From positions 1 to 59,311 of IMG/VR virus record IMGVR_UViG_3300047457_000862: 59,311 nt of DNA. One strand, written 5' to 3'. Under the pieces are notes generated by a model. That model was not told the origin of the DNA, did not search any database, and saw nothing but the letters and a program-made list of their open reading frames with translations. The position numbers and the translations under genes are program-made. The first letter of the stretch is position 1; each line of letters starts with the position of its first letter. The stretch comes from a virus (Duplodnaviria; Caudoviricetes). Below, piece by piece: positions 19,861 to 55,248 of the stretch.

Positions 19861-21638
19861 TTCTTCTTCGGTGGCTGGTTGGATTCTGGAGCGTGCTCGC
19901 CTTCCGGAGTGAGCCCGGCTTCGCGATTCAAATCTTCGGTGGTCGGCTCCTGCGGAACGATCTTCTCGGCCTCGCCCTGCGGAAGCCCGAACACCTGCAT
20001 GAGCGTCTGGATGGCGCTGTCGCGGTCCATCTTCCCCTCTCCGACCGCAACGAGAATATCCGTGAGCTGCTTGACCCCCTTATCTCCGATCGCCTGAATG
20101 CTGACCGGAGGCGGCGGCGGCTGCGGGGTCGGAGACAGATATGCGGCCTTCTGCGCTGTGATGTCCGAGTAGAGTCCGCGAGCGAACACCTCCGCAGGCA
20201 GTCCGGCTTTGGCCCCTTCCGAGATTGCCGTGTTGGCAGCCTGAGCATTTGACTGGAACACCTCCTGCGGTGTGTAGCCATACTTGGATGTGACGTCGGA
20301 CACGGGAAAGATCCCTGTCTGGACACCATGAATGTCGTTCTGCATCTCGTATCCGGCATCCGTGGTGATCCACGGGCCGAAGTGCCATGCCGAGTTGAAC
20401 TGCCCCGGGCTCGCCGGAATCTCCTTCCGAGCAACTCCGAATGCGATCACCTTGTTGCGGATTCGGGTGAGGATCTTCTGGACGATGATGTTGTTCTGCC
20501 AGCCCTGAATCGTGCGGAGGTCGCCCTGAAGCTCGATGCGCTGCGAAACGCCCCCAAGGCTCGCGAGATCCCACAGGAAGCCGTAGGACAGCTTCATGGA
20601 GTGCGCCATGCGCCGGATGAGGGTCTGGACGAACACCATTGTCGAACCCGATGGACGGGCGGAAGGAGTGACCATCTGGAACATCTCGCCCTCACCCATC
20701 TTGAGGATCTTGCCCCATGCGGCCTCCTGCGATGGAGTACCCGCCGCCGTCTTGCCATCCCAAGCGCCGGGTCCAGTATTTGTGAATGGGTCTTTCGTGC
20801 CAACCAGTGCAGTGAACTGACTCTGCGCCTTCATGGAGACCTTCTCTGCGTCGATCCACTCCTTGATGTCGCGAGCGTCGTTCAGTAGACGCAGCAGCTT
20901 CGTTCTACCACGGTATTCATCCCCAGCCTCGGGATCGAACACGTGAATGAAGGCCCGTGGCTCCACCTCGCGCTTATCGACGTACTGGTTGTTCTTCGTG
21001 CGGCGGAATGTGCGATAGCTCACCACCCGTCCGGTCAACGGGTCGATCGTAATACCCCCGATGTAGTTCTCGTTCGTGTCGGACTCCTGCGGGTTGCCGA
21101 TCCTGTCCGCGCTGATCAACTGAACACAGAACTCCCCGTTCGGAGAATACGCAGGATCGACTTCGACGATGCCGCTGTCTCCGTCCACAAGGAACCCAGT
21201 GAACGCGAGCTGCACGAGCTTCGAGAAGCGGTGCCTTCCAGTGATGTCGCAGCGAGTCGTTCCATCCTGTGCTGGCAAGTCCCCGCACCATCCGTGGAAG
21301 TAGTCGTCGTAAATCTTGTTCAGCTCCGGATCACCGGAGTTCGCGTGGTTCGTGATCGTGCCGCACACGTAGTTCACGATGCGTCCGATTACACCGCCGA
21401 TCCACTGATACTGGCACAGGTCCCGGGCATCCCACATCGCCTTGATGCGATCGCGGTTTGCCAGCGAAGTTTCACGCCCTGCGTTCTGGCTCTGGCCGCC
21501 GCTTCCTCCGCGGTGAGTTGAATTCGGGTTATATCCGGTCGAGAACGCCACTTCACTGAACCGAGGATTGAAAACGGTGACGATATTGCCCTGGCCGTCA
21601 TACAATCCCTGCCCTGCTGCGAGTTTGATATCCTTCAT
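19857..21638 (-). CDS. portal protein, lambda family
   Basis: 593 aa; ARDL, DGD.., FIHVFDP..EYRG motifs; follows gpW-like gene. Confidence 0.85.
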   Translation of the reverse strand: MKDIKLAAGQGLYDGQGNIVTVFNPRFSEVAFSTGYNPNSTHRGGSGGQSQNAGRETSLANRDRIKAMWDARDLCQYQWIGGVIGRIVNYVCGTITNHANSGDPELNKIYDDYFHGWCGDLPAQDGTTRCDITGRHRFSKLVQLAFTGFLVDGDSGIVEVDPAYSPNGEFCVQLISADRIGNPQESDTNENYIGGITIDPLTGRVVSYRTFRRTKNNQYVDKREVEPRAFIHVFDPEAGDEYRGRTKLLRLLNDARDIKEWIDAEKVSMKAQSQFTALVGTKDPFTNTGPGAWDGKTAAGTPSQEAAWGKILKMGEGEMFQMVTPSARPSGSTMVFVQTLIRRMAHSMKLSYGFLWDLASLGGVSQRIELQGDLRTIQGWQNNIIVQKILTRIRNKVIAFGVARKEIPASPGQFNSAWHFGPWITTDAGYEMQNDIHGVQTGIFPVSDVTSKYGYTPQEVFQSNAQAANTAISEGAKAGLPAEVFARGLYSDITAQKAAYLSPTPQPPPPPVSIQAIGDKGVKQLTDILVAVGEGKMDRDSAIQTLMQVFGLPQGEAEKIVPQEPTTEDLNREAGLTPEGEHAPESNQPPKKK

Positions 21639-43024: not shown

Positions 43025-44317
43025 TTATCGGCATGTGAACATGCTGATTTTTCCAAGGAAGTCGAAAGGAACCACCGCACCGCGCGCGCCGTCGCGATTC
43101 TTGTCGATCGAGACGGAACGTGATCCGTCCTCGTTCTCGGTTACAGTCAGGATGATGTTCGCGAAGTTCTCCTTCGCCTGCGAGTAGCGAGCCTTCAACA
43201 CCCCGTCCTTGCTCTCCGTAACCTGCGACAGCAGAATCGTCGTGATCCCGAGTTCTCCAGCCACCTTCTTCCAGGACGCGGAGATTTCAGACAACCCCTC
43301 CTCCTTCGAAACCTTCGGAGGAAGCGTGAGGAGTTCGTCGTAATCCAACACGGCGAGCCCGAGGTCCCCCCTGCTGGCCCGGATCCGAGTGCGCTGGATC
43401 ACCGACTCGATCGTGGCTGGGCGCTCCTCGATGAATTCGATCTTCGAGTTCTTCACGCTTTCGGCCCCATGCTTGATTAGCCCGAGAGCACCCTTCTCGT
43501 GCAGGAGGTCGCCGCGGGACTTCATGTAGTCCTTGATGTTCGTCCTTCCGCGAAGCTGAATGAGCCGAGACACCTGCTGGCGCACGGTCATCTCGTAGGT
43601 GAAGTAGGCAGTGCCGAGCTTGTGAGCCCTGTCAAATGCCTCTGCGAGATTCAGAGCAAACGCGCTCTTTCCACTCCCGCGCGCTCCGCGGATTAGAATC
43701 ATGTCGCCCTTCTGGAATCCCCCAATCTGCTCATCGAGCGCACCAAATCCGGTGGGCATACCGAAGATGGCCTGCGAGTTCCCGGATTCGATGTCGCGGA
43801 TGATGTCGTCAACAGCAGCCTCAGTGGTGGTCTGGCGACTCCTTCCGGCAGCGCACATCCCAGCGGTTGCGGCAGCCACGGCAAGCTCGGAACAAATCTC
43901 CGCGGCAGTCTGAGCCCTGGATTCGATTCCGGCCAGGATGCCAAGACATGCCTCGCGGGCCGTGCGAACCACGTACATGTCCCTGACGATCTCCGCATAC
44001 TCGCGGACGTTGTGAGCGAACGCTACCGACGACATGATCCCGAAGATCATCGAGAAGTCGATGTGCGTGTGCCCCTTGCTGTGAAGGAACCGCAGAAACA
44101 CCACGGTATCGATCGCGTGCCCACTCAATGCTCCGCCAGAGATCACATACTCCCTCAGAGCGAGGTAGATGAATTTGTTCGTTGCGTTCTGGGAAAACCA
44201 TCCCTCGTCAGCGCCCATCTGTTCGACGACGATAAGGCACTCATGCGGGGCGTGCATGATCGATCCGAGCAAATGCTTCTCAGCTTCCTCGTTTGAATAT
44301 CGGATTGCGGAGCTCAC
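43025..44317 (-). CDS. dnaB: DnaB-like replicative helicase
   Basis: EAEKHLLG, PTGFGALD, GARGSGKS, TYEM, LDY, LLSQ, KNRDG. Confidence 0.9.
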   Translation of the reverse strand: MSSAIRYSNEEAEKHLLGSIMHAPHECLIVVEQMGADEGWFSQNATNKFIYLALREYVISGGALSGHAIDTVVFLRFLHSKGHTHIDFSMIFGIMSSVAFAHNVREYAEIVRDMYVVRTAREACLGILAGIESRAQTAAEICSELAVAAATAGMCAAGRSRQTTTEAAVDDIIRDIESGNSQAIFGMPTGFGALDEQIGGFQKGDMILIRGARGSGKSAFALNLAEAFDRAHKLGTAYFTYEMTVRQQVSRLIQLRGRTNIKDYMKSRGDLLHEKGALGLIKHGAESVKNSKIEFIEERPATIESVIQRTRIRASRGDLGLAVLDYDELLTLPPKVSKEEGLSEISASWKKVAGELGITTILLSQVTESKDGVLKARYSQAKENFANIILTVTENEDGSRSVSIDKNRDGARGAVVPFDFLGKISMFTCR

Positions 44318-45228
44318 TTGGCACCTCCCTGCTTCAGCAAACGGGCCTCCAGCTCACGCTGGTAAGCATCCCTCTTCTCTTTTTCCGACATCTGGCGCTC
44401 CGCAGCCATTTTCGCTGGCGACGCGACCACGGGGCTCGCAGGCGCGTTAAACCGTTCGAAGTTCATCTTCCAAGTCCGGGCCGCCGCCTTCCAGTCCTTC
44501 ATCTTCGTCCGACCAAGCATCCAACCGCGGGCCGCGTGGTGATTCACGAAAGCCTCGGCCTGCTGCTGCGACGCTCCGTTCAGACCAAGAGCCTTGAAGT
44601 AGCCTTCAGCCTCATCGAGCCTCGGTGGCGAGAACCGCCTCGGTGGCGCGTCCAGCAAAAGGGGGTCGGCGACACTGGGGGTTTTGTCACTGCATTTTGT
44701 TCCTACGGTTGATGTGGTTCTTCCATCAGTAGCCACTTCCCCTTCTTGTATTTTTTTCTTTTGTTCTCCAGAACTATTTGAAGAAGTCTTTGTACCTATA
44801 TAGGGAGTCTCTCGTTTTGATAGAATGGGTTGATCAATTTGATCATCACATGATTCTATCAATCTGATAGAATGGGTGCGCCTATCGATCCTTTCTTCAA
44901 GCACCTCGATAGCATCCCAGTCGATTCGATAATAGCACCTGCGGTTGAACTTCTCCGGCTGGCATGTGATGAGCAGTCCGCGCTCCTTCAATTCAGCCAT
45001 GACGCGGTTCAGTGTCGGGACGCTCAGAAACGGGAAATACTGAGCCTGCCATTCATCTATCGAATTAAAAACCCAAAGCTCACCATCGATGACGCGCCCT
45101 GTTCGTGGCTGCTGAAGGAGGTAGGCTATCTGCTGGAGCACGAGCGCCTCATTGACCCCGATTTCAACTGCGAGTTGAGGGAGAAGGAGGAGCGGGGTCT
45201 CCCCTCCGATTGTGCGAAAGCGGCTCAT
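44314..45228 (-). CDS. phage replication initiator protein
   Basis: N-terminal wHTH (LAVEIGVNEALVLQQI); C-terminal FSPP...GW...MKDWKAAARTW; upstream of helicase. Confidence 0.8.
   Translation of the reverse strand: MSRFRTIGGETPLLLLPQLAVEIGVNEALVLQQIAYLLQQPRTGRVIDGELWVFNSIDEWQAQYFPFLSVPTLNRVMAELKERGLLITCQPEKFNRRCYYRIDWDAIEVLEERIDRRTHSIRLIESCDDQIDQPILSKRETPYIGTKTSSNSSGEQKKKIQEGEVATDGRTTSTVGTKCSDKTPSVADPLLLDAPPRRFSPPRLDEAEGYFKALGLNGASQQQAEAFVNHHAARGWMLGRTKMKDWKAAARTWKMNFERFNAPASPVVASPAKMAAERQMSEKEKRDAYQRELEARLLKQGGAK
44818..44877. repeat. iteron-like repeats (candidate ori)
   Basis: TGATAGAATGGGT at 44818 and 44865; inverted ATTCTATCA at 44853; AT-rich flank inside the initiator gene. Confidence 0.55.
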
Positions 45229-45542
45229 AGCGTTGCCTCCCCGAAAAGAAACACCATCCTATCCTCGTGAACATCTGCATTCCTCTCGATGCGGGTGGCC
45301 GGAAAGACCACGAACCCCGCCTCCTTCATGCGCTCATGCGCCCGGGCTATCAGTGCCGTGACACGCTCGGTCGAGTCGATTTGTATTTCGTAGCTCTCGC
45401 AAAAGTTCACAAAGTCGCAAGCATGTTCAGCGCGGGTGAAAAACGGGAAGGGAGACATGCAGTATTTATCCATTATCCCAATTATTTCCTCAGTGGTCAG
45501 CGGACACACCGAGCTATTCAAGATTTCAGTTTTCATAAGCAA
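45225..45542 (-). CDS. hypothetical protein
   Basis: First gene of the replication operon. Confidence 0.5.
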   Translation of the reverse strand: MLMKTEILNSSVCPLTTEEIIGIMDKYCMSPFPFFTRAEHACDFVNFCESYEIQIDSTERVTALIARAHERMKEAGFVVFPATRIERNADVHEDRMVFLFGEATL

Positions 45543-45828
45543 TAAAACGGCCCATCAAGGAAATCGGTCGGAGAGAGAATTTCACAGGCGGCGTGTCTCC
45601 ACGCTCTTTGGGTTCTCCGCCCGACTTCCTAGATGGGCCAAAATGTTACTCGAATTGATGTTATCCCGTGCGGTTTCTCAGGCCGATCGATTGCTCGATG
45701 GGCGATGAATTGCAGAACAAAACTTTCACGTCAACGATTATTTTCGTTGCACTTCTTTCCGATAAATGATGAAAACAGCTCGCTCGACGACAAGTTCGCG
45801 AGCAGCTTACACTGACAAAAACAAAACA

Positions 45829-46548
45829 ATGACACTGATCAAAACATCCACCCCCGACAGCCAGATAACGCTGTCTGAATCAGCCGCGGAAGCGAAGAAA
45901 ACGCTCACCATGGCTTCGTCTGAAATCACCGAGGTAAAATCCCCGGAAGAGTCCACCGCGGCGAAAGCCGTGATCGCGAGAATCGACACCCACATGAAGG
46001 ACTTCGAGAAAGCGCGGGTCGCTGCAAAAGCGCCGTTCCTCGAAATCTGCCAGAAGCTCGACGCACTCAGCAGGGAGCATGTGGCATCGCTGGACTCGGA
46101 ACGGAAGCGGCTCAGCCGAATCGCAGCAGGGTTCGACGCCGAACAACTTCGAAAAGCGCAGGAGGAGGCGGCAGCGGCGCAGCGAAAGGCCGAGGAAGAA
46201 GAGCGCGAGCGGCGGAAGGCAATCGCTGAAGCTGAGAAAAAGCAGCGTGAGGCCGAGCAGTCCGGAGACGAGGCGGCAAAGCTGGAGGCGGAGATCCTCG
46301 CGGAAACCGCCAATGAGGCACCAGCGAAAGCCGTGGTCGTCGCCCCGATTCCAGAACATCTGGAGGGCATCCGGATGAAGACGGAGATCACCGTCACGGA
46401 CATCAAGGCGCTCTACGCTGCGCATCCGATGTTCGTGCGGCTTGAACCTGATCTGCGGATGATCCGCGCTGCGATCGACTCCGGGCAAACACTACCTGGG
46501 GTCAAGGTTGAGAGAGTTCCCGATGTCGCGAAGAGGAGGGGCGTATGA
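45829..46548 (+). CDS. coiled-coil recombination-associated protein (Gam/Gp157-like)
   Basis: Long helix, C-terminal LPGVKV; upstream of SSB and recombinase. Confidence 0.6.
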   Translation: MTLIKTSTPDSQITLSESAAEAKKTLTMASSEITEVKSPEESTAAKAVIARIDTHMKDFEKARVAAKAPFLEICQKLDALSREHVASLDSERKRLSRIAAGFDAEQLRKAQEEAAAAQRKAEEEERERRKAIAEAEKKQREAEQSGDEAAKLEAEILAETANEAPAKAVVVAPIPEHLEGIRMKTEITVTDIKALYAAHPMFVRLEPDLRMIRAAIDSGQTLPGVKVERVPDVAKRRGV

Positions 46549-46859
46549 GCGAAAAACGAGACAACAGCGGATCGTCGTTCCCGAACGACAGACGCCGCGA
46601 AGGGAAGAACGACCCGAACATCACAGGTTCCGTCATGATCGACGGGGAAGAATACTGGATGGACACGTGGGTCAAGAACCACCCCAAGCAGCCCAACCAC
46701 GACCCTTCGAAGAAGACCTGGTATTCGCACAGCTTCCGAAAGAAAGACTCACAGCGACAAGCTCGCCAACCACAACAACGCCGACAATCGGCACCACCTC
46801 CACCACCACCATCCGATAACGATGGAGGACTCCACCCGGACGAACAAACCTGGCAATAA
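46545..46859 (+). CDS. putative ssDNA-binding protein
   Basis: PNITGSVMIDGEEYW..W; Pro/acidic tail. Confidence 0.65.
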   Translation: MSEKRDNSGSSFPNDRRREGKNDPNITGSVMIDGEEYWMDTWVKNHPKQPNHDPSKKTWYSHSFRKKDSQRQARQPQQRRQSAPPPPPPSDNDGGLHPDEQTWQ

Positions 46860-46865
46860 CACACC

Positions 46866-47930
46866 ATGAACGAACAATACACACTCGAAACAATCGCAAC
46901 CATCAGCGAGAAACTTGCCCGAAGCGGCTTGATGGGAGGAAAAACGTCACCGGACGCGGTCTTTGGACTGATGCTCCTGTGCCAGAGCGAAGGCATGACG
47001 CCGATCTCTGCCATGAAGCGATACCACGTCATCGAGGGCAAGCCCTCTATGCGCGCAGACGCCATGCTTGCGGAGTTCCTCAACGACGGCGGCCGCGTCA
47101 TCTTTCACATCCGCGATGATGACATGGTGGGCGCTACGTTTATCTCGAAGACAGTGACGGTAGGGCAGGAGCACATCGACCGCGCCAACCAGCGGTTCCT
47201 TGCGGTGTGGAAGCTATGCTCAGCCCCGGCAGGGGAGCGCACGGGCCTCTACACGACCATTGCCAAGCTGTCGCACCCGGGCGAGGAAACCATCATCCGC
47301 ACATTCGCTGACTGCGACGCCAAGGGGCTTACGACGGGCAGCGACGGAAACCTGAAGAAGAACTGGGCGCAGTCACCGCGACAGATGCTCACCGCCCGCG
47401 TGATCACCGAGGGAATCCGACTGGTGGCACCACAGCTCGTCACCGGGGTCTATACGCCGGAGGAAATCAGCGATGAATCACCGCTTTCAGGGCTGGTGAA
47501 GAAGCAGACTGCCGAAGAGTTGCGGAAGGCCGCGCTCGACGAGACAGACCCCGAGAAGCGTCGTGAGCTGCTGGGTGCCGCTTCAGATATCGCGCACTCG
47601 GAGACGAAAGAGGCAGTGCTTGTGTTGGAGCAGGACGATATCCCGATGGGAGACGCGAAGCCCGCGAAGGCCAAGCAGATCAAACAGCAGGAAACCGAAC
47701 CCGCTCCGGACGTCGAGCCGCCGCTCCAGATCGGAGTTCCGTGGCAGGACTACGTGATCACCGAACTGAAGAACAAGCAGATGAACGGGCGAAAGCTCGG
47801 GACTCTGTCGAAGGCTGAGCTCGCAATGCTTCACCGCACGCGCTGCATGCCGTTCCTCAAGTCCGACAACGACAGGCTGCGCCTTGAGGCCGAGAAGATC
47901 CTTGAAGCATGTGAATCCTTCGCGCAATGA
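46866..47930 (+). CDS. RecT-like ssDNA annealing recombinase
   Basis: HVIEGKPSMRADAM, NWAQSPRQMLTAR, GVYTPEE. Confidence 0.75.
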   Translation: MNEQYTLETIATISEKLARSGLMGGKTSPDAVFGLMLLCQSEGMTPISAMKRYHVIEGKPSMRADAMLAEFLNDGGRVIFHIRDDDMVGATFISKTVTVGQEHIDRANQRFLAVWKLCSAPAGERTGLYTTIAKLSHPGEETIIRTFADCDAKGLTTGSDGNLKKNWAQSPRQMLTARVITEGIRLVAPQLVTGVYTPEEISDESPLSGLVKKQTAEELRKAALDETDPEKRRELLGAASDIAHSETKEAVLVLEQDDIPMGDAKPAKAKQIKQQETEPAPDVEPPLQIGVPWQDYVITELKNKQMNGRKLGTLSKAELAMLHRTRCMPFLKSDNDRLRLEAEKILEACESFAQ

Positions 47931-48208
47931 ACAACGACGCAAACACTCCGGCAGTAAGGATCACCGCATCCGCAATCGAGGCGACCATTCTCATGTTTCT
48001 GTTCACGTGGGTCCTTGGGAAATACGGAGTCCACGCGCCGAAGATTCCGATGTGGATGTCCGTATTCATTGCGTCCTTGTTCGAGGCATGGGCGAGTAGA
48101 TGGGGATACCACCCAACGAAATTGTCAAACATGGTCCGACGCTCATTCCAGGGCTCTGTAATCATTGCGATCCTCGCGCTGATCGCAAAATGGGTCGGGA
48201 TGCTATGA
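47927..48208 (+). CDS. small membrane protein
   Basis: Three hydrophobic segments. Confidence 0.55.
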   Translation: MNNDANTPAVRITASAIEATILMFLFTWVLGKYGVHAPKIPMWMSVFIASLFEAWASRWGYHPTKLSNMVRRSFQGSVIIAILALIAKWVGML

Positions 48209-48576
48209 CAACCAAGAAGAAGCTGAGTGCAATCCGCGCGAAGTGCGTTGAGCTTTTGGCGATTGCTGAGAAGCGGACGCAAGGCCAATGGAAACGGCAG
48301 TCAATATATGGGACGGCTATTTTATGCGAGAATAGCAAGAATAACGGGAATATGGTTTGCGATTTGCCAGATTCAAGCCCTGAGTGCGATCAATTTTCAC
48401 CTAATGCAGATTTTATTGCCTCATGCGCCGGACCCGCAGAGGCAGGATGGAAAGCTACGATTGCGGCGATTGATTCACTCGAAACAGTTGCGGAATGGCA
48501 TCCAAGTGGTGCCGCTAAAAACGAAGAAGCCGCAGCGATTGACGCAATCATCGCCGCATGGGAGGGCCTGGCATGA
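48205..48576 (+). CDS. Ead/Ea22-like protein
   Basis: KRTQGQW...NADFIASC. Confidence 0.55.
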   Translation: MTTKKKLSAIRAKCVELLAIAEKRTQGQWKRQSIYGTAILCENSKNNGNMVCDLPDSSPECDQFSPNADFIASCAGPAEAGWKATIAAIDSLETVAEWHPSGAAKNEEAAAIDAIIAAWEGLA

Positions 48577-48820
48577 CCAAGCTGCTTCCCGGAGATCGCG
48601 TTTCGTTCATCCAGAACGGACGCAGACTGCGCGGCGTGATCGCCGATGCTTTGCAGATAAAAGTGCGCGGCGAGGAGCTGGAGCTACCCGTGGTTCGGCC
48701 ATCGCGAAGATCTGCTTCTCGCCCGCTCATGGAGCAGCAAAGGCCGCCGAAGCTGCGCTGGATCAAGCGGTCCCTGCTCAGGAAATTGCCAGTCAAGAAG
48801 GAGGGCGGAAAGGAGCAACA

Positions 48821-49144
48821 ATGACAGAGAAAACTGCAACGCCCGACGAATTGGGAGCAGCGCCTTTTTCGCCAGTTTCGTGTCCGCTCTGCGACGGAGG
48901 CGGGCAAATCACAAATCCCGAGCATCCCGACCACCCAAAGAACACACACGACGGCCACGACGAAACGTGGTGCCTCGGCTGCGATGGCAGCGGTCTGCTT
49001 GAAGTAAAGCGAGGCGTAGTCATGCAGGGCAGATACGAGGGCGAAAGGCTCTCGCGGCTGAAAAGGTGGCGCGCGCAGGATGGTCCGCCGAACGACAAAC
49101 ACAGCGAACCCGCCGAGGGAACGCGCAACCAACACGAAAAATGA
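48821..49144 (+). CDS. DnaJ-type Zn-finger cassette protein
   Basis: CPLCDGGG...CLGCDGSG. Confidence 0.6.
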   Translation: MTEKTATPDELGAAPFSPVSCPLCDGGGQITNPEHPDHPKNTHDGHDETWCLGCDGSGLLEVKRGVVMQGRYEGERLSRLKRWRAQDGPPNDKHSEPAEGTRNQHEK

Positions 49145-49208
49145 CTGATACTAACCAACCCCAAAAGAAACCAGAAACGGCGGGTTCGCCTGCTGTGATG
49201 GGTTCTGA
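49087..49208 (-). repeat. attC site
   Basis: On +: GCCGAAC...CACAGCGAACCCGCCG / CGGCGGGTTCGCcTGcTG...GTTCTGA. Confidence 0.75.
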
Positions 49209-49611
49209 TTCCCTAGCCGAAAAGCTCTTTGCTGCCGACGGACTGGATATGGAGCTATTCGACACGGTAAACATGATACTTGGGTGCGACACGGGAAAAT
49301 GCACTGACACAGGATTTTTGTGGGGTGCGACCGATACAACTTGGGATCATTACGACTGCTCGGTTGAAATCATTCGTCCTATTCACAGCGAATGGATGTC
49401 GCGCGAGCAGGCAGATCAAATCCTTGCGTTAGGCTTCGCTCAGATATTTGAAACTGTTGGCGATAAAGCGCGGCAAATCACAAGGAAAGGAATAGGCACC
49501 TGTTCGCCGCGTGAGGCAGGGGAGGTCAGAAGGCTCAAGGCGGAAATAAACGCACTCAGGAATCAGAACGCAGAAGTCAGCGACCCGACGGAGGAGGGTT
49601 CGCTGCACTGA
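49141..49611 (+). CDS. cassette ORF, hypothetical
   Basis: Starts inside one attC loop and ends inside the next attC. Confidence 0.65.
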   Translation: MTDTNQPQKKPETAGSPAVMGSDSLAEKLFAADGLDMELFDTVNMILGCDTGKCTDTGFLWGATDTTWDHYDCSVEIIRPIHSEWMSREQADQILALGFAQIFETVGDKARQITRKGIGTCSPREAGEVRRLKAEINALRNQNAEVSDPTEEGSLH

Positions 49612-49621
49612 CTGGTTCGGC
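49563..49621 (-). repeat. attC site (59 bp)
   Basis: Minus strand: GCCGAAC-CAGTC-AGTGCAGC-GAACCC..GGGTC-GCTGACT-TCTGC-GTTCTGA. Confidence 0.9.
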
Positions 49622-49631
49622 ACATTCACCG

Positions 49632-49979
49632 ATGAAAACGAAAGACCAACTCAAACCAAACTTCGGGCCAGCCTACGCCGCCGCTATGTATCCCGGCCTC
49701 GCGGCAATTTTCCACTGCCACGGCTACGCGCTCGCGTGCCACGGAAGCCTCGCCCGCGACTTCGACCTGATAGCTGTGCCGTGGGCTGAAACTGTGTCAG
49801 ACCATGCGACGGTGCTGAAAGACGTGACGACGGAATACGCGCTGCGACTCACGGACGATGGCGAAATGAAAAACCACGGGCGAAAAGCCTACACGCTCTC
49901 ATGCGGATTTGGTGAGTGCGCGATAGACCTGAGCTTTGTGTCGAACGACCCAAGCTCAGCGACGCGGGAGACAATATGA
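49632..49979 (+). CDS. cassette ORF, nucleotidyltransferase-like
   Basis: GYALACHGSLARDFDLIAVPW (GS..D.D motif). Confidence 0.7.
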   Translation: MKTKDQLKPNFGPAYAAAMYPGLAAIFHCHGYALACHGSLARDFDLIAVPWAETVSDHATVLKDVTTEYALRLTDDGEMKNHGRKAYTLSCGFGECAIDLSFVSNDPSSATRETI

Positions 49980-50165
49980 CGAACGAACGGAAACCAAAGC
50001 AGCCTGCGGTCCTTGGCGGGCCGTGTGAATGCGGCGATGGATATGCCGCGTGCAATATGGTGCTCGCCTACGAATGCACCCAGTGCGGTAGGCGGGAGGC
50101 TGCGGATGAATCGGCTAAAGCGCCGGACGAACAGGAGGCGCGTTCGCTGCAGCGCGTGGTTAGTC
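49940..50165 (-). repeat. attC site with long loop (226 bp)
   Basis: GTCGAAC..GCTCAGCGACGCG / CGCGtTCGCTGcAGC..GTTAGTC. Confidence 0.75.
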
Positions 50166-50464
50166 GCCTTGAGTGGACTTTCGAAGCAGAGTCGCGGCGG
50201 TGGCTGGGGCGGCTTCGTGGACATCCCGACCGCACGCTGTTCATCCTCAATCTCGTGGAGGGCCGCGACGACCGCTGCCACCTTCTTGGCGGGGTGATGT
50301 CCGACAGCGAGGATAGGCAACACACCCGCGCACTCGTGACTTGGGCGAAAATGGCGGCGGAGTGGTATCTCGACGACTTCGAAGCACTGCTGAAGGCGAC
50401 TAACAATCAAGCTCACCTACCCGCTCCGGCGGAGACGGTGGAGCGCAAGAAAGACAATCTATGA
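49976..50464 (+). CDS. cassette ORF, hypothetical
   Basis: Starts inside an attC loop. Confidence 0.6.
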   Translation: MTNERKPKQPAVLGGPCECGDGYAACNMVLAYECTQCGRREAADESAKAPDEQEARSLQRVVSRLEWTFEAESRRWLGRLRGHPDRTLFILNLVEGRDDRCHLLGGVMSDSEDRQHTRALVTWAKMAAEWYLDDFEALLKATNNQAHLPAPAETVERKKDNL

Positions 50465-50523
50465 ACACAGACACATCGAACGCAGAACAGCAGGAGCGGG
50501 TTAGGTGCAGCGCATGGTTAGAT
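50398..50523 (-). repeat. attC site
   Basis: GACTAAC..GCTCACCTACCCGCTCC / GGAGCGGGtTAGGTGcAGC..GTTAGAT. Confidence 0.88.
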
Positions 50524-50706
50524 GCCTGTAAGCGGCGCTACGAAGCAGCAATCAAAGCGCACTCGAAAGCACAAACAGCGGACGAGGAAAATAGACTGTT
50601 TGACGAAGTGGTGGCTGCAACCGACGAATACAGAACCGCGTCGGCATCTAACGCTGAACGCAGCGGCGTAACGTCCGCTGCCGTGACTGGTTCGCCACCT
50701 TTATGA
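50461..50706 (+). CDS. cassette ORF, hypothetical
   Basis: 81 aa; both termini are encoded by attC DNA. Confidence 0.55.
   Translation: MNTDTSNAEQQERVRCSAWLDACKRRYEAAIKAHSKAQTADEENRLFDEVVAATDEYRTASASNAERSGVTSAAVTGSPPL
50646..50696 (-). repeat. attC site (51 bp)
   Basis: ATCTAAC..CGCAGCGGCG / CGtCCGCTGcCG..GTTCGCC. Confidence 0.8.
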
Positions 50707-51065
50707 ACTCACTCGAAGTAATCAATGCCGAGAAACGCGCCTACGAGAAAGCGTGGAGATTGAAGAACATCGAAAGGTGTCGGCAATACTCGCGTGACAA
50801 TTACGCGAAGAATAAGGAACGCCGCCGCGAATATCGGTCCAAGTGGAGCAAAGCCAATCGCGCAAAGAAGAACGCCATAAACAAGCGGTGGCGCGAACGG
50901 CACCCGGATGTCGTGAAGGAATGCAATCGCCGCGAAATCGAGAACCTATCGGCAGCGTATGTAGCCAAGAAGATGCGCCTGCGTGTTAGCGAGTGCCCGC
51001 CCGAACTCATTCAACTGAAACGAACCCATATCCAACTGCAAAGAGAATTACGAAAAACCAAATGA
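50703..51065 (+). CDS. basic helical protein (cassette)
   Basis: R/K/Y/W repeats; PPELIQLKR. Confidence 0.65.
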   Translation: MNSLEVINAEKRAYEKAWRLKNIERCRQYSRDNYAKNKERRREYRSKWSKANRAKKNAINKRWRERHPDVVKECNRREIENLSAAYVAKKMRLRVSECPPELIQLKRTHIQLQRELRKTK

Positions 51066-51268
51066 CCACACCAACGAACATGCAAGAACTCCGCGCCGTG
51101 CTCTGCGAAACCATCGCCGCCGTTCGCGCAAAAGAAATCACACCCGACGCGGCGGAGGCCGTGAGTAATGCGAGCGGCAAAATAGTCGCGAGTTTCCGTG
51201 TGGAACTCGAATACCGCAGGATGCGAGGCGAAGTGCCTACACTCGGCTTCATGGAGGGCGGGAAATGA
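51062..51268 (+). CDS. small hypothetical protein (cassette)
   Basis: AEAVSNASGKIV; coupled to previous ORF. Confidence 0.6.
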   Translation: MTTPTNMQELRAVLCETIAAVRAKEITPDAAEAVSNASGKIVASFRVELEYRRMRGEVPTLGFMEGGK

Positions 51269-51672
51269 ACTGCGACGACGACCACCACGCGGCTATGGGT
51301 TCCATCGCGGAATCCAGCGCCGCGCAGGAGCAGGCTGTTAAACTCGCAAACCAAATCGACAAAGCACTCGCGCTAGTGAACGAAGAATGCCCAGCAATGG
51401 ATCATTTCACAAACATCGTTCCAACCGTAGAATGGCTGATTCAGAAATGGCGCGAATGTCGGAGGCTTTGGTCTAAATCATGCCAATACCGGGACAAATT
51501 ACGCGAGGAAAATCAACGTCTCCGCGACCACTTTTCTGGCCTGATTTACAGCGCAGAACGCGCAGCCGATTTGATTATTTCCGTGAGCGACCGATACGAC
51601 ATTGATGTTGCGATAGAGTCGGCAAAGGCGGTGCTGGCGAACGATGAGATCAGCCGGGAGGCGGGAGAATAA
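51265..51672 (+). CDS. hypothetical protein (cassette)
   Basis: Ends within an attC arm. Confidence 0.55.
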   Translation: MNCDDDHHAAMGSIAESSAAQEQAVKLANQIDKALALVNEECPAMDHFTNIVPTVEWLIQKWRECRRLWSKSCQYRDKLREENQRLRDHFSGLIYSAERAADLIISVSDRYDIDVAIESAKAVLANDEISREAGE

Positions 51673-51731
51673 TTTATGAAAAACACACAAGGCTCGCAGC
51701 CCGCCTCATCGGCTGCATCGACGGGTTCGGC
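51636..51731 (-). repeat. attC site
   Basis: GGCGAAC..GATCAGCCGGGAGGCGGG / CCCGCCTCATCGGCTGcATC..GTTCGGC. Confidence 0.85.
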
Positions 51732-52110
51732 ACTTACATTCGATGCGTTTCGTGCAGCGAACGTAGCACGCTGCCTCAAATGGCATCCCAAAGGAATCGA
51801 ATCGTGGTCGTCGTCAGACTGGCTCACCGCCGTCGCTGGCGAACTCGGAGAACTGGCATCACTGCTGAAAATGCGCAACCGAGAACGCGACGGGCTGCCC
51901 GGAAATAAGTTCAGCCCGACAGACAAACAAATCGCCGATGAAGTAGCCGACGTAGCGACCTACCTCGACCTGCTGGCATACGTGCTCGGCGTGGACATGG
52001 GCCGCGCGGTTGCGGAGAAATTCAATGCTGTCAGCGAGCGCGTGGGATTCCCCGACCGCCTCGAGGTGCCGAACGCAGAATCCACCGACGCGAAGCGTTC
52101 GGTGCGATGA
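51676..52110 (+). CDS. MazG-like nucleotide pyrophosphohydrolase (cassette)
   Basis: GELGEL...DEVADV..YL...KFN. Confidence 0.85.
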   Translation: MKNTQGSQPASSAASTGSALTFDAFRAANVARCLKWHPKGIESWSSSDWLTAVAGELGELASLLKMRNRERDGLPGNKFSPTDKQIADEVADVATYLDLLAYVLGVDMGRAVAEKFNAVSERVGFPDRLEVPNAESTDAKRSVR

Positions 52111-52120
52111 TTTGTTCGAC
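52068..52120 (-). repeat. attC site (53 bp)
   Basis: GCCGAAC..ATCCACCGACGC / GCGtTCGGTGcGAT..GTTCGAC. Confidence 0.88.
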
Positions 52121-52130
52121 ATTTACGACT

Positions 52131-52757
52131 ATGCAAACACAAGAAGCACTCGAAACACTTGACGCCATGCAGCGTCAAGTCATTCACGGCTCGACAGTCT
52201 TCAGGGACATCGGCGACGTGATACGGAATCTCACGCTTTCATGGACCGAAAAACCGCCAGACCAAGAGGGATGGTATTGGATTCGTTTCGCTGGGGTAGA
52301 AGCGCGACTGGTCAGTGTGGCTCATAATGGGACCACTTTGGAATACTACATATCAGGAATGGGTAAATTTAACCTATTCTACCCGCCCTCGCATTTCGTT
52401 GAGTTCGCCGGACCTGTGCGCGAACCGTCGAACAATAAAATGAACGAACCAGAACCAACTCCACCAACAGACAGCGGGCGCTTGCCTGACGCTACTTGTT
52501 CGCCTGCGGACGTTTTGCGGATACGCTGCATTCACCACATTAACGTGCCGCAACAAAACACGGCAGAGCACACTGGCGCGGAATGTGGTGGATGTATTGC
52601 CGCCGAACGGGACGCACTCAGATCCAAACTGGAGCAAGTGAGGAGACTGGCTGAGCATCTTGGATTCTGCCAACAGGTCTCCCAGAGGGAGATTGCCGAT
52701 GCGCTGACAAGCATACTGAATCAGGCGAACAAGGATTCTGCAACCGATTCACTCTAA
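52131..52757 (+). CDS. hypothetical protein, fusion of two cassette ORFs
   Basis: WTEKPPDQEGWYW module plus CIHH/ECGGC module joined across a decayed attC; second in-frame ATG at 52440. Confidence 0.55.
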   Translation: MQTQEALETLDAMQRQVIHGSTVFRDIGDVIRNLTLSWTEKPPDQEGWYWIRFAGVEARLVSVAHNGTTLEYYISGMGKFNLFYPPSHFVEFAGPVREPSNNKMNEPEPTPPTDSGRLPDATCSPADVLRIRCIHHINVPQQNTAEHTGAECGGCIAAERDALRSKLEQVRRLAEHLGFCQQVSQREIADALTSILNQANKDSATDSL

Positions 52758-52780
52758 CCGTTCGTCTAATCAAAATCCGA
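52724..52780 (-). other. attI-like recombination site candidate
   Basis: G|TTCGCC core without attC hairpin; two further GTT cores at 14-bp spacing. Confidence 0.5.
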
Positions 52781-52781
52781 C

Positions 52782-54632
52782 CTACCCCTGCACGTTCGCC
52801 GCGCTGGTCTCCCCGGGCATCGAAAGCAACCCGAGCTGGAGCGCCCTGATCGCAACGTGGCTCTCGCAGTCCGAGAGATGGTTCTCCTGATGAAGCTCAA
52901 CCCATGTCCACTCTACCTTGCCAGTGCGCTTATTCTTCTGCTGGCGCTTCACGCGTGAGTTCAAGTGGCGCTGGTAGCGGTCGCTCACGTTGATTGAAGC
53001 GTGCCAGATAACGGGGTCCGCGTAGCGCAGGCTCGACACGAGATCGAGGGCTCCGTTCTTCGAGAACTTCACGAATCGCACGCGCTGGACAGTGCGGTTC
53101 TCCCATGCGGTTCCGAGGAGCGGATCGCGGAACTGGACCTGTGAGTAAATCCTGGTGGTTCTCGTTCCATTCGGCCCTGGGTGGTAGAACTCCTTCGTGT
53201 TTGATCCCCAGATGCCGCGCCATCCGTAGCTGAGTATGATTCGGCCGACAGCGTTCGGTCGGTTCGCCATATCCACGGTGACGTTCTCGTCCGCAACTCC
53301 GTATTCGATCTGGACCTTCTTGATGTCGTCCTCGGTGTCCACGCGCTCCGCAAACACCAGCCAGCTCTCGCCGTGCGGCTTCTGTGGCGTCGGGCGGGCG
53401 AACTTCCGCACCAGCACCCAGTAGTGCCCCTCCTGCGCGTCCACGGCCATAAGCGGGACGGAGTCCTCCGGGGTCGATGTAATCTCCTCCAGCGGGATTT
53501 CCTTGTGATCGTAGCCGCGTGACTCGTCCCACGGTTCCGCAAGCCACGAGTTGATGAAGTTCTGCATGTCGCGCAGCAGCCCCTTGGATGTGAGATACTG
53601 AACTGCCACGGCCGACAGCGACGTCTGCTGCGACAGGATCGAGTATAGCGAGCTGAGTTGATACCCGAACCAGCCCGGGGCGCACTGCGAGTTTGTCGGG
53701 GTCCATATCCCCTCGCTGAGCATTGCCTGCCTCTCGATGTCCTGAATCTCTCCTCCGCACTCCTGACAGCGATAGAAGGCGTTCCTCGCCACTTTCTCCA
53801 TGTCCCACGCCCCATCGGTCTTCGATTCCTCCTCAGACTCTCTCCACCACCGCACCCCGCAATCGCCGTGCTCCTCCGACTTCGTTGTGAACATCAACCG
53901 GATGCGCCGTTCGCACCGCGGGCATGGGAGCATGTAGTATCGCTGGTCTGTCTTCAGGAACTCGGTCCAGATCATCCGGTTCGCCAGCGTCGGCGTGGAC
54001 GATTTCACCACCAGCGGGAACGGGTAGGTCTTCGTGCGCTCCTCCGCCAGTTTGATCGCCGCTGCCTCGAACTTCGACTCGTCGCCATACTTGTCCGTCT
54101 CGTCCATCCACAGCAGCCCTACGGGTCGGCTGGAAAGGTTCGCCGGAGAGTTGGAGCCTACAAAGTTGAGCACCATCGACGAGAAGTGCTGCTCCATGAA
54201 TCCGAAGAGATGCTTGTCGAACTCGCCGGATGCCGATCGAGGGACCATCGCCGCTGCCTGGGCGCACGCCCTGACGAACTTCTGCCACCGCGACTTCGAG
54301 AATGACTTCGCGAGCTCGCCATTCGGAAGCACCCACATGGCGTCCTGCGGATCCCGGGCCAGCCGATAGAGCATCCCGAGCTGCATGACCGAGGTTTTCC
54401 CGCTCTGCGTTCCGAACACCAGGACGAGGTGCTTTGAGTCCTTCTGCCCGATCCGCTCCAGCGGCTCCCTCAGATACGGAGTGAGCGTCATCGATGCCCG
54501 CCCCTGCACGGCACCAGTAGGGATGTCGCAGTTCGCCTCCACCCAGCTCACCACACTCTCGGTGGTCGGAGGCCTCAGTGCGTCCCTGAACCGCTGTTGC
54601 AGCTCCCTCAGTGCTTCAAGTCGATTACTCAT
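52782..54632 (-). CDS. terminase large subunit, GpA family
   Basis: TPYLREP, GTQSGKT, WMDETD, SSTPT, CPRC/CQEC, ENHLSDC. Confidence 0.92.
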   Translation of the reverse strand: MSNRLEALRELQQRFRDALRPPTTESVVSWVEANCDIPTGAVQGRASMTLTPYLREPLERIGQKDSKHLVLVFGTQSGKTSVMQLGMLYRLARDPQDAMWVLPNGELAKSFSKSRWQKFVRACAQAAAMVPRSASGEFDKHLFGFMEQHFSSMVLNFVGSNSPANLSSRPVGLLWMDETDKYGDESKFEAAAIKLAEERTKTYPFPLVVKSSTPTLANRMIWTEFLKTDQRYYMLPCPRCERRIRLMFTTKSEEHGDCGVRWWRESEEESKTDGAWDMEKVARNAFYRCQECGGEIQDIERQAMLSEGIWTPTNSQCAPGWFGYQLSSLYSILSQQTSLSAVAVQYLTSKGLLRDMQNFINSWLAEPWDESRGYDHKEIPLEEITSTPEDSVPLMAVDAQEGHYWVLVRKFARPTPQKPHGESWLVFAERVDTEDDIKKVQIEYGVADENVTVDMANRPNAVGRIILSYGWRGIWGSNTKEFYHPGPNGTRTTRIYSQVQFRDPLLGTAWENRTVQRVRFVKFSKNGALDLVSSLRYADPVIWHASINVSDRYQRHLNSRVKRQQKNKRTGKVEWTWVELHQENHLSDCESHVAIRALQLGLLSMPGETSAANVQG

Positions 54633-55248
54633 ACATTTTCTGCGCCTCCGTGATAATTTCCGTCGCTGCCGCCTCAAGCACATCGAACGCCCTGCGCGGG
54701 TCGGCTGGGTTACAGAGCGTGCATTTCGCCTGCGGGAGACGCTTCAGCCTGCCAATCATCAGATCCCACCCCTTCCTGAACATCTCCGTTGCTTCAGCCA
54801 GCGGGACAAGCACCCTGCGCTGCGCCTGCTCCTCGCGGTACGCCTTTTCCGCCGCGAACCGGGCCTCGATAGCCTTCGTGTGGATCGAGAGCGCTGGCGC
54901 GACCGCAGCGGGCTTTCCGGACGCCATGGCATCATCGAGCATCTTTTTCGCCTGAATCTGTGCCATGATCGCCGACTTCAGTGCCCCCTCCAGCGACATA
55001 TCCGCCGCGCTCGACGCATCCTTCCTCGGTCTGCCCCTTTTCCTCTTGGGTGGCTCGATCGACGCCACAACCTCCTCCATTTGCTCTGCCGCCCGCTTCC
55101 CTCCGGCCGACTTTCTCGACCTGGCATTCGCCTCCCGCCACTCCGTAGCGGCTTCTTCTGAGTCCAACGGCATCCCCTTCGTCGTGAGCTTCCTCACATA
55201 CTCCCGGGAGACGCCCCATCTGCGGGCAAGTTCAGCTTGGCGTATCAT
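54625..55248 (-). CDS. terminase small subunit (Nu1-like)
   Basis: N-terminal wHTH QAELARRWGVSREYV..GMP; LVP motif; overlaps terL. Confidence 0.8.
   Translation of the reverse strand: MIRQAELARRWGVSREYVRKLTTKGMPLDSEEAATEWREANARSRKSAGGKRAAEQMEEVVASIEPPKRKRGRPRKDASSAADMSLEGALKSAIMAQIQAKKMLDDAMASGKPAAVAPALSIHTKAIEARFAAEKAYREEQAQRRVLVPLAEATEMFRKGWDLMIGRLKRLPQAKCTLCNPADPRRAFDVLEAAATEIITEAQKMYE

Follow-up and report, generated by a model that had tools for sequence, protein, structure and literature searches.

The array described here, from an uncultivated phage of fresh water, is very probably an integron cassette array without an integrase of its own (a CALIN) that is built into the early operon at its end. 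The window, by which we mean the whole 59,311-nucleotide stretch of viral DNA that was analysed, carries it after exonuclease, SSB and RecT early genes and convergent with the large terminase gene (Table 1). No tyrosine or serine recombinase was found in the window, and the attC sites are thus classed as a CALIN; since the estimated completeness of this phage contig is only 81%, an intI gene could still lie elsewhere in the phage. The host is probably a member of the Verrucomicrobiota or Planctomycetota. Phage CALINs have already been published and the eight-unit array is a variant on those; swappable cassettes in a phage early region are one way in which phages trade small genes.

The repeats are integron attC sites, both in structure and in family membership. 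A weight-matrix (PWM) scan gives eight matches of at least 23 bits, every one on the + strand, from 49202 to 52498. The sites combine an AAC/GTT R box with an unpaired spacer of 5–7 nt and a stem from which two bases, 6 bp apart, are extrahelical. Folded as DNA, they show in order the R stem, 5+5 unpaired spacer nucleotides, 3 bp, one bulged base, 6 bp, a bulged T and the loop; on the + strand, the arm facing AAC is the one that carries the bulges. This geometry is the one set out by Nivina et al. (2016, PMC5027507) for the attC bottom strand, in which AAC is cleaved between A and C and the extrahelical bases lie opposite this triplet with a 6-bp spacing, the farthest being a conserved T. A covariance model (CM) built from 70 bacterial sites only matches six window sites at E <= 2.6e-5, all on the + strand and all within the array (the best match outside it reaches 15.6 bits), a result that is partly circular because the bacterial sites were found via a window-derived pattern and weight matrix. 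The independent part of the family evidence is that the bacterial sites adjoin true integrases. In genomes of Verrucomicrobiota and Planctomycetota, sites of this family are neighbours of true integron integrases: all five bacterial recombinases tested score 370–411 bits on TIGR02249 (cut-off 265), and at six of seven bacterial loci intI is encoded on the motif strand, with the array on its 5' side. The family also occurs on one unrelated phage contig (G001), with TerL (E 3.5e-107), a major head protein and 12 sites, then intI at 290 bits. Across 108 viral matches (some contigs counted as viral, here and below, may be bacterial DNA), pairing holds in 95% of cells (62% in shuffles, 28–37% in slid controls), and the covariation score is 0.70 against 0.156, with none of 500 shuffles reaching the observed value.

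The preliminary description had held that the two ends of each cassette are reverse complements while the boxes within one hairpin often mismatch, and this is borne out. All eight pairs of start and end strings that it listed are present at the positions it gave. Beyond GTT/AAC, the contiguous complementarity of cognate ends is 8, 2, 9, 7, 5, 6, 4 and 6 nt, against a non-cognate mean of 1.16 and maximum of 6, and 4 of 40,320 permutations reach the summed cognate value; within hairpins, only 1, 0, 2, 0, 2, 2 and 2 further bases match. Because these ends had been picked, the permutation test was redone without chosen ends, each start being scored by its best anchored reverse-complement run within the final 260 nt of every interval. 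For cognate pairs the runs are then 11, 5, 12, 10, 8, 9 and 7 against a non-cognate mean of 4.67, with 4 of 5,040 permutations reaching the observed sum. Six of the eight ends (49569, 49946, 50404, 50652, 51642 and 52074) are independently fixed by perfect 9/9 inner-stem pairing. Other viral contigs with the same repeat behave likewise (98 cognate pairs, mean run 8.6, 73% of at least 7; 446 non-cognate pairs, mean run 4.65, 14% of at least 7), as do bacterial arrays (mean run 7.6 cognate, 5.6 non-cognate). When segments were circularised in silico, as had been proposed, all eight folded better than the array form, by 2.8–9.1 kcal/mol, and better than the mean of non-cognate ends.

Natural variants directly back excision and integration of integron-type cassettes, in array breakpoints as well as in unit mobility. 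The footprint of such events that the preliminary description saw is therefore upheld, while the crossover point and unit that it proposed are not: its + strand G|TT cut is rejected, since each natural breakpoint lies at AAC, at the opposite end of the segment. The crossover is AA|C on the + (coding) strand, which is the integron 'bottom' strand, G|TT being on the − strand. The mobile unit is thus a hairpin and the segment after it (C, upstream hairpin, GTT box, segment and ..AA), not a segment and the hairpin after it; end complementarity could not separate the two cuts because it is identical under both readings. Among near-identical contigs and public runs, the latter compared as assembled contigs, at least four arrangements occur on one nearly identical phage backbone; no junction of a circle turned up, though assembled contigs would not show rare circles. 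L009, with both flanks 99.7–100% identical, keeps cassette 1 between different neighbours, carries two others and has 49946 fused directly to 52731. X7 contigs skip exactly 458 nt at AAC boundaries (cassette 2) and 656 nt (cassettes 6 and 7 together, 5 nt shared), and an X3 contig skips 476 nt (cassette 0), joining 49089 to 49566 with 5 nt shared, a joint supported by just 30 nt on one side. Cassette 3 occurs in other contexts at higher depth in X3, X5 and X9. Different last cassettes join one and the same right flank in the window, in L009, in L247 (a third cassette end) and among the loose ends from X3 and X5; by position this boundary is either attI-like or a secondary insertion site. Cassette 2, 461 nt from AAC to AAC, is 100% identical over this length in another, otherwise unrelated phage (L030, L044, L038) and in contig G005, which otherwise shares with the window only one 83%-identical gene, the last ORF of cassette 4 (51265–51672), there outside any attC. 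In G005 cassette 2 stands alone, inserted in frame at an AAC inside an ORF, with no other attC in 26.6 kb. Another phage shows contigs (L071 versus L110, L100 and L018) that differ by one 272-nt unit with ends of the same kind.

It is the recombinogenic bottom strand that encodes the cassette genes. The + strand carries the PHROG matches and tight ATGA overlaps (five of eight stops in the window are ATGA), and AAC falls in frame, as a codon for Asn, at all nine window boundaries, of which AAC 49091–49093 is an additional one, upstream of the range described before. Counted by cluster, AAC in viral loci is in frame 0 in 80 cases, frame 1 in 3 and frame 2 in 6, with 46 more undecided, whereas bacterial loci (37, 8 and 32) follow no in-frame rule. 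A stop falls in the next loop at 58 of 80 sites, with an ATGA-type overlap at 39 of 80. In other arrays, where strands were called by a crude longest-open-frame rule, gene and site share a strand in 9 bacterial cases and are opposite in 93, against 42 and 30 in viral arrays.

Table 1. Coordinates of the cassette array, its sites and its neighbours in the window.
Feature	Position	Strand	Evidence and details
Upstream early genes (exonuclease-like, SSB-like, RecT)	45766..47930	+ (as array)	phrog_10477, phrog_18154, phrog_561, PF03837
Entire array: eight cassettes, eight attC-like sites, one orientation	49082..52757	+	PWM, CM, boundaries
attC site 0	49084..49211	+	AAC 49091–49093, GTT 49202; ATGA 49141–49144 in long loop; CM R1 27.7 bits, E 2.6e-5; arm duplex −11.9 kcal/mol
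Cassette 0, 476 nt	49093..49568	+	ORF 49141–49611; exactly missing in X3 contig
attC site 1	49560..49624	+	AAC 49567–49569, GTT 49615; CM 38.4 bits; 9/9 stem pairs; fold
Cassette 1, 377 nt	49569..49945	+	ORF 49632–49979; phrog_35913 (phage family), E 2.2e-31
attC site 2	49937..50168	+	AAC 49944–49946, GTT 50159 (212-nt spacing); ATGA 49976–49979 in loop; 9/9 stem pairs
Cassette 2, 458 nt	49946..50403	+	ORF 49976–50464, Cys-rich; exactly missing in X7 contig
attC site 3	50395..50526	+	AAC 50402–50404, GTT 50517; ATGA 50461–50464 in loop; CM 58.4 bits, E 2.8e-13; 9/9 pairs
Cassette 3, 248 nt	50404..50651	+	ORF 50461–50706; loose ends at 50402 and 50652
attC site 4, shortest	50643..50699	+	AAC 50650–50652, GTT 50690; CM 35.5 bits; fold: R stem, 5+5 nt spacer, 3 bp, bulged base, 6 bp, bulged base
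Cassette 4, 990 nt	50652..51641	+	ORFs 50703–51065, 51065–51268, 51265–51672; site boundaries
attC site 5	51633..51734	+	AAC 51640–51642, GTT 51725; stop 51670–51672 and ATG at 51676 in loop; CM 49.0 bits; 9/9 pairs
Cassette 5, 432 nt	51642..52073	+	ORF 51676–52110, weakly MazG-like
attC site 6	52065..52123	+	AAC 52072–52074, GTT 52114; ATGA 52107–52110 within 3' arm; CM 32.9 bits; 9/9 pairs
Cassettes 6 and 7, 359 and 297 nt	52074..52729	+	single ORF 52107–52757; jointly missing in X7 contig
Degenerate site 7	52425..52506	+	AAC 52431–52433, GTT 52498; PWM 23.1 bits; weak fold, −8.4
Fixed right boundary	52728..52781	+	AAC 52728–52730, then flank conserved among variants; different cassettes abut here
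Large terminase subunit (gpA type), convergent with array	52782..54683	−	PF05876, E 6.3e-49; phrog_15, E 1.8e-73

Some sites and genes depart from the common pattern. Site 0 has an irregular stem with one extra base within the 6-bp stem, and site 2 receives only split CM matches (16.1 and 13.5 bits) because of its long loop. The 3' half of site 7 is recognisable and its 5' arm is not; the site has no CM match, a search for a 5' arm partner found none, and the ORF runs straight through it. Profile searches gave no family match for the cassette 0 ORF, and that of cassette 5 matches PF12643 at E 7.4e-4 and 20.2 bits, under the cut-off of 27.

The acting integrase and its timing, like the functions of the cassette genes, we infer from sequence. 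When single-stranded, the + strand would fold into hairpins that integron integrases recognise, and AAC would be cut between A and C by an integron integrase supplied by the host, by a co-infecting phage or by a related one. The partner in the ensuing strand exchange could be a second attC or the fixed site beside the terminase gene, units leaving as circles and re-inserting. The segment ends are complementary because the variable bases beside GTT and AAC are one attC in the circular unit. The phage's own early promoter would drive the cassette genes, with transcription toward the attI-like end. Since AAC is an in-frame Asn codon, genes run some 10–20 codons into the next unit's hairpin and stop inside it, often at the ATGA that starts the next gene; any unit order thus stays translatable, and translation of neighbouring cassette genes may be coupled.

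The window has no integrase, chromosomal integron fragments have been described in phages (Qi et al. 2023, PMC9892861) and the sites are of the type found in Verrucomicrobiota and Planctomycetota, all of which would suit a passive relic, that is, a piece of host chromosomal integron picked up once that neither recombines in the phage lineage nor serves the phage. We regard this as improbable in view of the different arrangements on one backbone, the genes on the strand opposite to that of bacterial arrays of the same site type (9 same, 93 opposite), an in-frame AAC that is strong in viral arrays (80/3/6) and absent in bacterial ones (37/8/32), and cassettes with phage-type genes (phrog_35913, MazG-like) packed into an early operon. 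Homologous recombination between conserved repeats, for example by a phage exonuclease/RecT, would recall T4-type promoter/stem-loop cassettes and would need no integrase, and exonuclease, SSB and RecT genes do lie directly upstream of repeats that are 63–81% identical over 32–38 nt. It would, however, neither make nor preserve cassette-specific complementary ends; all breakpoints are at AAC with 3–5 shared bases and not within the longer conserved arms, and the lone cassette 2 in G005 has a far side without a repeat, which makes this route very improbable.

We give scarcely any credence to the hairpins being mainly RNA elements (terminators, processing sites or translation-coupling structures), with the complementary ends as long-range RNA helices. 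The hairpins are transcribed inside an operon and many have a stop/start overlap in the loop, and an RNA-level role alongside recombination is quite possible; yet no terminator-like site (stem plus T run) was found on the + strand inside the array, in bacteria such sites border the cassettes on the non-coding strand, beside integrases, and exact unit-sized deletions and an identical unit in another phage would be left unexplained. That these are not terminators or REP elements had been argued in the preliminary description, and the natural variants, which show integron-type cassettes, agree.

The integron-type array can be compared with several known systems. Promoter/stem-loop (PeSL) cassettes of T4-type phages comprise small early genes that lie between repeated structured elements and are exchanged as modules, and their movement is ascribed to homologous recombination between promoter-including repeats. 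The array resembles them in having small early phage genes between structured repeats and in module shuffling, but it breaks at a site-specific crossover of 3 bases, with attC sites as its repeats, and promoter-like sites are not in excess. With classical attC sites (class 1 and chromosomal integrons) as presented in PMC5027507 it shares the AAC/GTT R box, the unpaired central spacer, the variable loop, the A/C crossover and the extrahelical bases opposite AAC on the recombined strand, 6 bp apart, and as in classical arrays the linearised cassette bears cognate R-box halves at its two ends. In those arrays the gene is on the top strand with attC at the 3' end, and Pc, beside attI, drives its expression (PMC5027507); here, on the other hand, the gene is on the bottom strand with attC at its 5' end, many starts lie inside the loop, transcription runs toward the attI-like end and the window holds no intI. 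The nearest extrahelical base is usually C (322 of 357 sites), not G as in classical attC. The lone cassette 2 at a non-classical site in G005 is reminiscent of attG insertions (Loot et al., bioRxiv 10.1101/2022.09.11.507474), but differs from those described there in lying in a phage genome, in frame with the interrupted gene, and is known from sequence only. In class 1 integrons the short frame ORF-11 in attI1 helps to translate the next cassette (review PMC8876359), and here too a reading frame ends within the next cassette's recombination site; unlike ORF-11, which that review describes as one ORF at attI1, one phase rule holds at every junction, with the overlap in the attC loop.

The closest relatives are the published phage CALINs. 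A survey of 10,705 NCBI phage genomes found 21 with integron parts, 17 of those being CALINs, and showed that IntI1 recombines phage attC sites (Qi et al. 2023, Front Microbiol, PMC9892861). As in those, virulent phages included, the attC array lies in a phage genome without an adjoining integrase. The cassettes of two of those phages are described as bacterially oriented, whereas here the genes are on the bottom strand; relative to the CALINs as that survey describes them, the present array further differs in its eight units, its in-frame AAC, its stop/start overlaps in loops and a turnover that is directly shown by natural variants.

We conclude with considerable confidence that the region is a CALIN carried by a phage, with cassettes organised in a new way. 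By the definition attributed to Cury et al. 2016, a CALIN is a group of two or more neighbouring attC sites that lacks an integron integrase in its vicinity, and the array holds eight sites within 3.6 kb, with no integron integrase in the contig. It does not constitute a complete integron, since intI is missing and the stretch between the last AAC and the stop codon of the terminase gene measures just 52 nt; in the entire 59-kb contig, profiles for tyrosine recombinases (PF00589), integron integrases (TIGR02249) and serine recombinases (PF00239) gave no match. The window is a linear IMG/VR viral contig of 59,311 bp, with an estimated completeness of 81% (CheckV). Small + strand ORFs follow one another in series from 48227 to 52757, mostly with overlapping stop and start codons, and PHROG and Pfam searches assigned no function to most of the cassette ORFs. 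Gene calls between RecT and the array (48227-49144) are uncertain, as there are long open frames on both strands (305 aa on +, 195 aa on -); the + frame terminates at an ATGA within the first attC loop. Scans of 45200-53000 returned 3 promoter-like sites (2.9 expected from shuffles) and 13 terminator-like sites (10.7 expected) and are thus uninformative on expression. Where the replication genes (-) and the early operon (+) diverge, the gap contains a 26-nt inverted repeat (45549-45574/45614-45639, 88% complementary), which may be an operator or early promoter region. At 44805-44877, in or beside the ORF downstream of the helicase gene, a ..GATAGAATGGGT-like motif recurs 47 nt apart in direct and inverted orientation, resembling iterons.

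Genes around the attC array and the mobile units within it
Feature	Position	Strand
Portal protein	19857-21638	-
DnaB-like helicase	43025-44317	-
Exonuclease-like protein, SSB-like protein, RecT	45766-47930	+
Cassette unit 0	49093-49568	+
Cassette unit 1	49569-49945	+
Cassette unit 2	49946-50403	+
Cassette unit 3	50404-50651	+
Cassette unit 4	50652-51641	+
Cassette unit 5	51642-52073	+
Cassette unit 6	52074-52432	+
Cassette unit 7	52433-52729	+
gpA-type large terminase	52782-54683	-

All eight array sites carry AAC and GTT at their outer ends, and a weight matrix of the repeat's 3' half finds eight copies, all on + (49202-52498), with nothing comparable in the rest of the contig. Folded as single-stranded DNA, the sites are closed by an outer stem (..AAC/GTT..); inward of it come a spacer with 5-7 and 5 bases unpaired, 3 bp, a bulged C, 6 bp, a bulged T and additional pairing, and the loop at the tip measures between 3 and about 170 nt. 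The stem pairs 9/9 with a 5-7 nt spacer at six of the eight sites, the exceptions being the irregular site 0 and site 7, which fails. According to Nivina et al. 2016 (PMC5027507), the integron integrase cuts AAC between A and C, the extrahelical bases lie in the arm opposite AAC in the recombined bottom strand and in the same arm in the top strand, and 6 bp separate the first and last extrahelical bases, the farthest being the conserved T. The + strand order of the array sites (T, 6 bp, C, 3 bp, spacer, GTT) fits this pattern, the conserved T being partly imposed by the weight matrix used for the search; by these criteria, the window's + (coding) strand is therefore the bottom strand. The nearest extrahelical base is a C in the array sites, whereas in attC it is usually a G. 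A relaxed arm-duplex scan found no further attC in 47800-49085. A candidate arm pair inside cassette 4 (51079/51337, -10.8 kcal/mol) is weak and was treated as noise, and a matrix match at 48867 is also weak (14.3 bits) and has no partner arm.

The preliminary description had claimed that the two ends of each segment are complementary to each other, while the outer boxes within one hairpin often mismatch. This observation is confirmed. All eight string pairs that it named are present at their coordinates, and the outer boxes within one hairpin agree over only 0-2 bases past GTT/AAC. Beyond GTT/AAC, the cognate ends match over 8, 2, 9, 7, 5, 6, 4 and 6 bases, against a mean of 1.16 and a maximum of 6 in the 56 non-cognate combinations, and the cognate sum was equalled or beaten in 4 of 40,320 permutations of the end pairs. 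Because these ends had been picked in the preliminary description, the test was repeated with unchosen ends, the final 260 nt of every interval being searched for the best reverse-complement run anchored to a given start; this gave 11, 5, 12, 10, 8, 9 and 7 for cognate pairs, compared with a non-cognate mean of 4.67, and the observed sum was reached in 4 of 5,040 permutations. Furthermore, six of the eight ends are set independently of the outer boxes, by an inner stem that pairs 9/9 with AAC 5-7 nt outside it. In L071, a contig of an unrelated phage, a cassette at about 2300-2320 ends in GAT...ATC instead of GTT...AAC and is still complementary at 11/11, the central base of the crossover triplet being changed on both sides.

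Two other readings of these hairpins have to be weighed. Intrinsic terminators or REP elements, against which the preliminary description had already argued, are at odds with the array, which has no + strand site with a GC stem and T-run, keeps a single orientation and overlaps coding sequence. The other reading concerns the cut site and the unit. That description recognised integron-type cassettes with complementary ends and was right in substance, but it placed the cut at G|TT of the + strand and took each unit as a segment with its downstream hairpin, and here it was wrong: natural breakpoints all lie at AA|C of +. Circularising the AA|C units in silico and folding them yields eight of eight reconstituted sites that fold better than the array form, by 2.8-9.1 kcal/mol; all eight beat the mean obtained with foreign ends, and six beat the best foreign end. 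Circles built from a segment and its downstream hairpin likewise gain stability, so that folding is blind to the unit definition and it is the natural breakpoints that decide.

Natural variants are thus the decisive evidence for the crossover point. In every variant, the unit begins at the C of AAC, takes the following hairpin and the next segment, and ends in ..AA; because all natural units start at this C, the cut lies at AA|C on +, equivalent to G|TT on -. An integron integrase may be what recombines the array sites at AA|C. L009, an 8.9-kb viral contig whose RecT is identical to that of the window, is 99.7% identical to it up to 49122 and 100% identical from 52726 on; between these flanks lie other cassettes totalling 1.07 kb, including a MazG-like one, and then window 49561-49946, fused directly to 52731 via a shared CGAAC. 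In L247, a metagenome contig, a different cassette end (..GCTCGCTAAC) is fused to the window's right flank. Public assembled contigs from freshwater and aquatic runs of four studies add three joints, which skip 49944-50401 (458 nt, 3 bases shared), 52070-52725 (656 nt, 5 bases shared) and, in assembly X3, 49090-49565 (476 nt, 5 bases shared, one side only 30 nt), the last exposing the AAC of the first site (49091-49093) with a proper 5' arm. Loose ends in the public assemblies all fall at 49944, 50402/50404, 50652, 52077 and 52726/52728. Joints with 21-22 nt sides at 49964-50142, and array parts left uncovered in assemblies X5, X7 and X9, were discounted as other cassettes with similar arms.

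One unit is also shared with another phage. Cassette 2 (window 49944-50404) is 100% identical in three other contig stretches, L030, L044 and L038. In the 26.6-kb contig behind L030 (G005), one 83%-identical gene is the rest of the sequence common to the window, and no other attC was found in the 26.6 kb; the lone cassette 2 is inserted around L030 1804-2264 at an AAC within a coiled-coil-like ORF, which it splits in frame. In the unrelated phage of L071, that contig differs from L110, L100 and L018 solely by a 272-nt unit of the same architecture. An 'empty site' junction, with left flank fused to right flank, was not found in viral contigs. Two variants of one phage each have a MazG-like pyrophosphatase gene as a cassette, and the two genes differ (window 51676-52110; L009 5604-5987).

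A pattern derived from the repeat returned 116 stretches from viral contigs, 45 of which hold 2 to 12 copies on a single strand, and a stricter pattern returned at least 120 stretches from bacterial contigs taken as one genome per species. Verrucomicrobiota (including Kiritimatiellia) account for 48 of the 80 bacterial matches listed, Planctomycetota for 12 and other taxa for 20. A recombinase gene adjoins such sites in seven bacterial loci, and the five neighbours scanned are integron integrases (TIGR02249, 370-411 bits; cut-off 265); it is these integrase neighbours that provide the independent evidence for an attC family. At six of the seven loci, the motif strand is the coding strand of intI and the array lies 5' of intI, which is the classical divergent layout in bottom-strand view. 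With 70 bacterial sites as its sole input, a covariance model finds six sites in the window, all on + and all within the array (E 2.8e-13 to 2.6e-5; best match outside the array 15.6 bits), a fit that is partly built in because the bacterial seed sites were found by window-derived patterns. In an alignment of 108 matches from 20 viral sources, 95% of cells pair, compared with 62% after shuffling and 28-37% with a slid partner, and compensatory changes occur in all 16 pairs. The viral contig L107 has nine very uniform sites, as in a chromosomal integron, and in seven of its eight intervals the longest ORF runs on the other strand, which is the bacterial orientation; it may be bacterial DNA within the viral collection.

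Some viral contigs with such sites encode an integrase of their own. G001, an unrelated phage contig, encodes TerL (phrog_38, E 3.5e-107) along with a major head protein; its 12 sites precede an integron integrase gene of the same strand (TIGR02249, 290 bits). G004, a 100%-complete phage contig, has seven sites and no tyrosine recombinase. By a profile made from six integrases, at least 463 viral stretches encode relatives, some of which may fall below the integron-integrase cut-off or lie on bacterial fragments. Among the best 78 of these at least 463 relatives, outside G001, 38 have attC-model hits of the array type, and 83 of the 89 hits beside the best 78 lie on the integrase's strand. At L187, L290, L267 and L281, which are in the minority, intI and the sites occupy opposite strands, an 'inverted integrase' layout. 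Since the window is free of integrase and integrases stand beside like sites elsewhere, the enzyme acting on the array would most likely be the host integron integrase or one from a related or co-infecting phage. Different cassettes abut one right flank in the window, in L009, in L247 and at two more loose ends, as expected beside attI or a secondary insertion site; the flank is attI-like by position only, and no sequence motif was found that it shares with the DNA preceding intI in G001 or in six bacterial loci.

The most distinctive features of the array concern its coding strand and reading phase. In bacterial arrays of this site type, a crude rule places the longest open frame on the motif strand in 9 cassettes and on the opposite one in 93; for viral arrays the same rule gives 42 and 30, respectively. 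The window is clearly coding on +, the bottom strand, so that each gene lies on the bottom strand with attC at its 5' end. The classical cassette, on the other hand, has its gene on the top strand, attC at the 3' end, and is driven by Pc; the array cassettes are not of this kind. At all nine window boundaries, AAC is an in-frame Asn codon of the crossing ORF, which runs 9-19 codons into the following unit before its stop; only at the degenerate site 7 does it read on. Of the stops, five of eight overlap the next start as ATGA. Across viral loci, AAC falls in frame 0 at 74 sites, frame 1 at 3 and frame 2 at 6 and, after clustering by upstream cassette body, at 80, 3 and 6, with 46 undecided (42 loci), whereas bacterial loci give 37, 8 and 32. 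Arrays beside integrase relatives in viral contigs give 25, 1 and 1. The TAAC box alone closes frame 1, and frame 2 has no such constraint. The stop falls within the next loop at 58 of 80 viral sites, 39 of the 80 having an ATGA-type overlap. Such a shared phase convention would let any unit follow any other, keeping termination and re-initiation whatever the unit order.

We lean, somewhat tentatively, towards the broader proposal that Verrucomicrobiota and Planctomycetota phages have a 'phage-type' cassette of their own, with a bottom-strand gene, an AAC that is always an in-frame Asn, and an attC loop in which the previous stop overlaps the cassette's own start. This would amount to a frame-preserving, plug-and-play grammar in which any unit order can be translated within the early operon; units would be exchanged among unrelated phages by host- or phage-encoded integron integrases, and would enter at the operon's far end and not beside its promoter. 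Many small phage genes of the early region are thought to counter host defences, and homologous or illegitimate recombination is mostly credited with the exchange of such small, fast-changing genes. In this array the swapping is done by a defined site-specific system, and the variants show exact units lost, replaced, or 100% identical in another phage.

Integron parts in phages are already published: Qi et al. 2023 (PMC9892861) surveyed 10,705 phage genomes and found such parts in 21, CALINs making up 17 of the finds, and on that basis what is new here is the cassette organisation. Translational coupling through attI1 (ORF-11) is also known (PMC8876359). In the literature covered, in which subscription journals are mostly missing, we found no account of genes on the bottom strand, of an in-frame crossover codon or of stop/start overlaps in attC loops, none of a Verrucomicrobiota/Planctomycetota-type attC array in phages, and nothing past Qi et al. 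2023 on phage integrons in viromes or on this cassette orientation. To the handful of isolates in which phage integron parts had been published, our data add many viral contigs from the environment, and some of these encode an integrase themselves. If general, the organisation would offer a natural case of attC sites within coding sequence, a handle, in the flanking sites, with which to mine phage accessory genes and, for integron biology, a second mode of cassette expression; genes on the bottom strand, a crossover codon read in frame and hairpin loops with a stop/start overlap make up an arrangement that has not been described for bacterial integrons.
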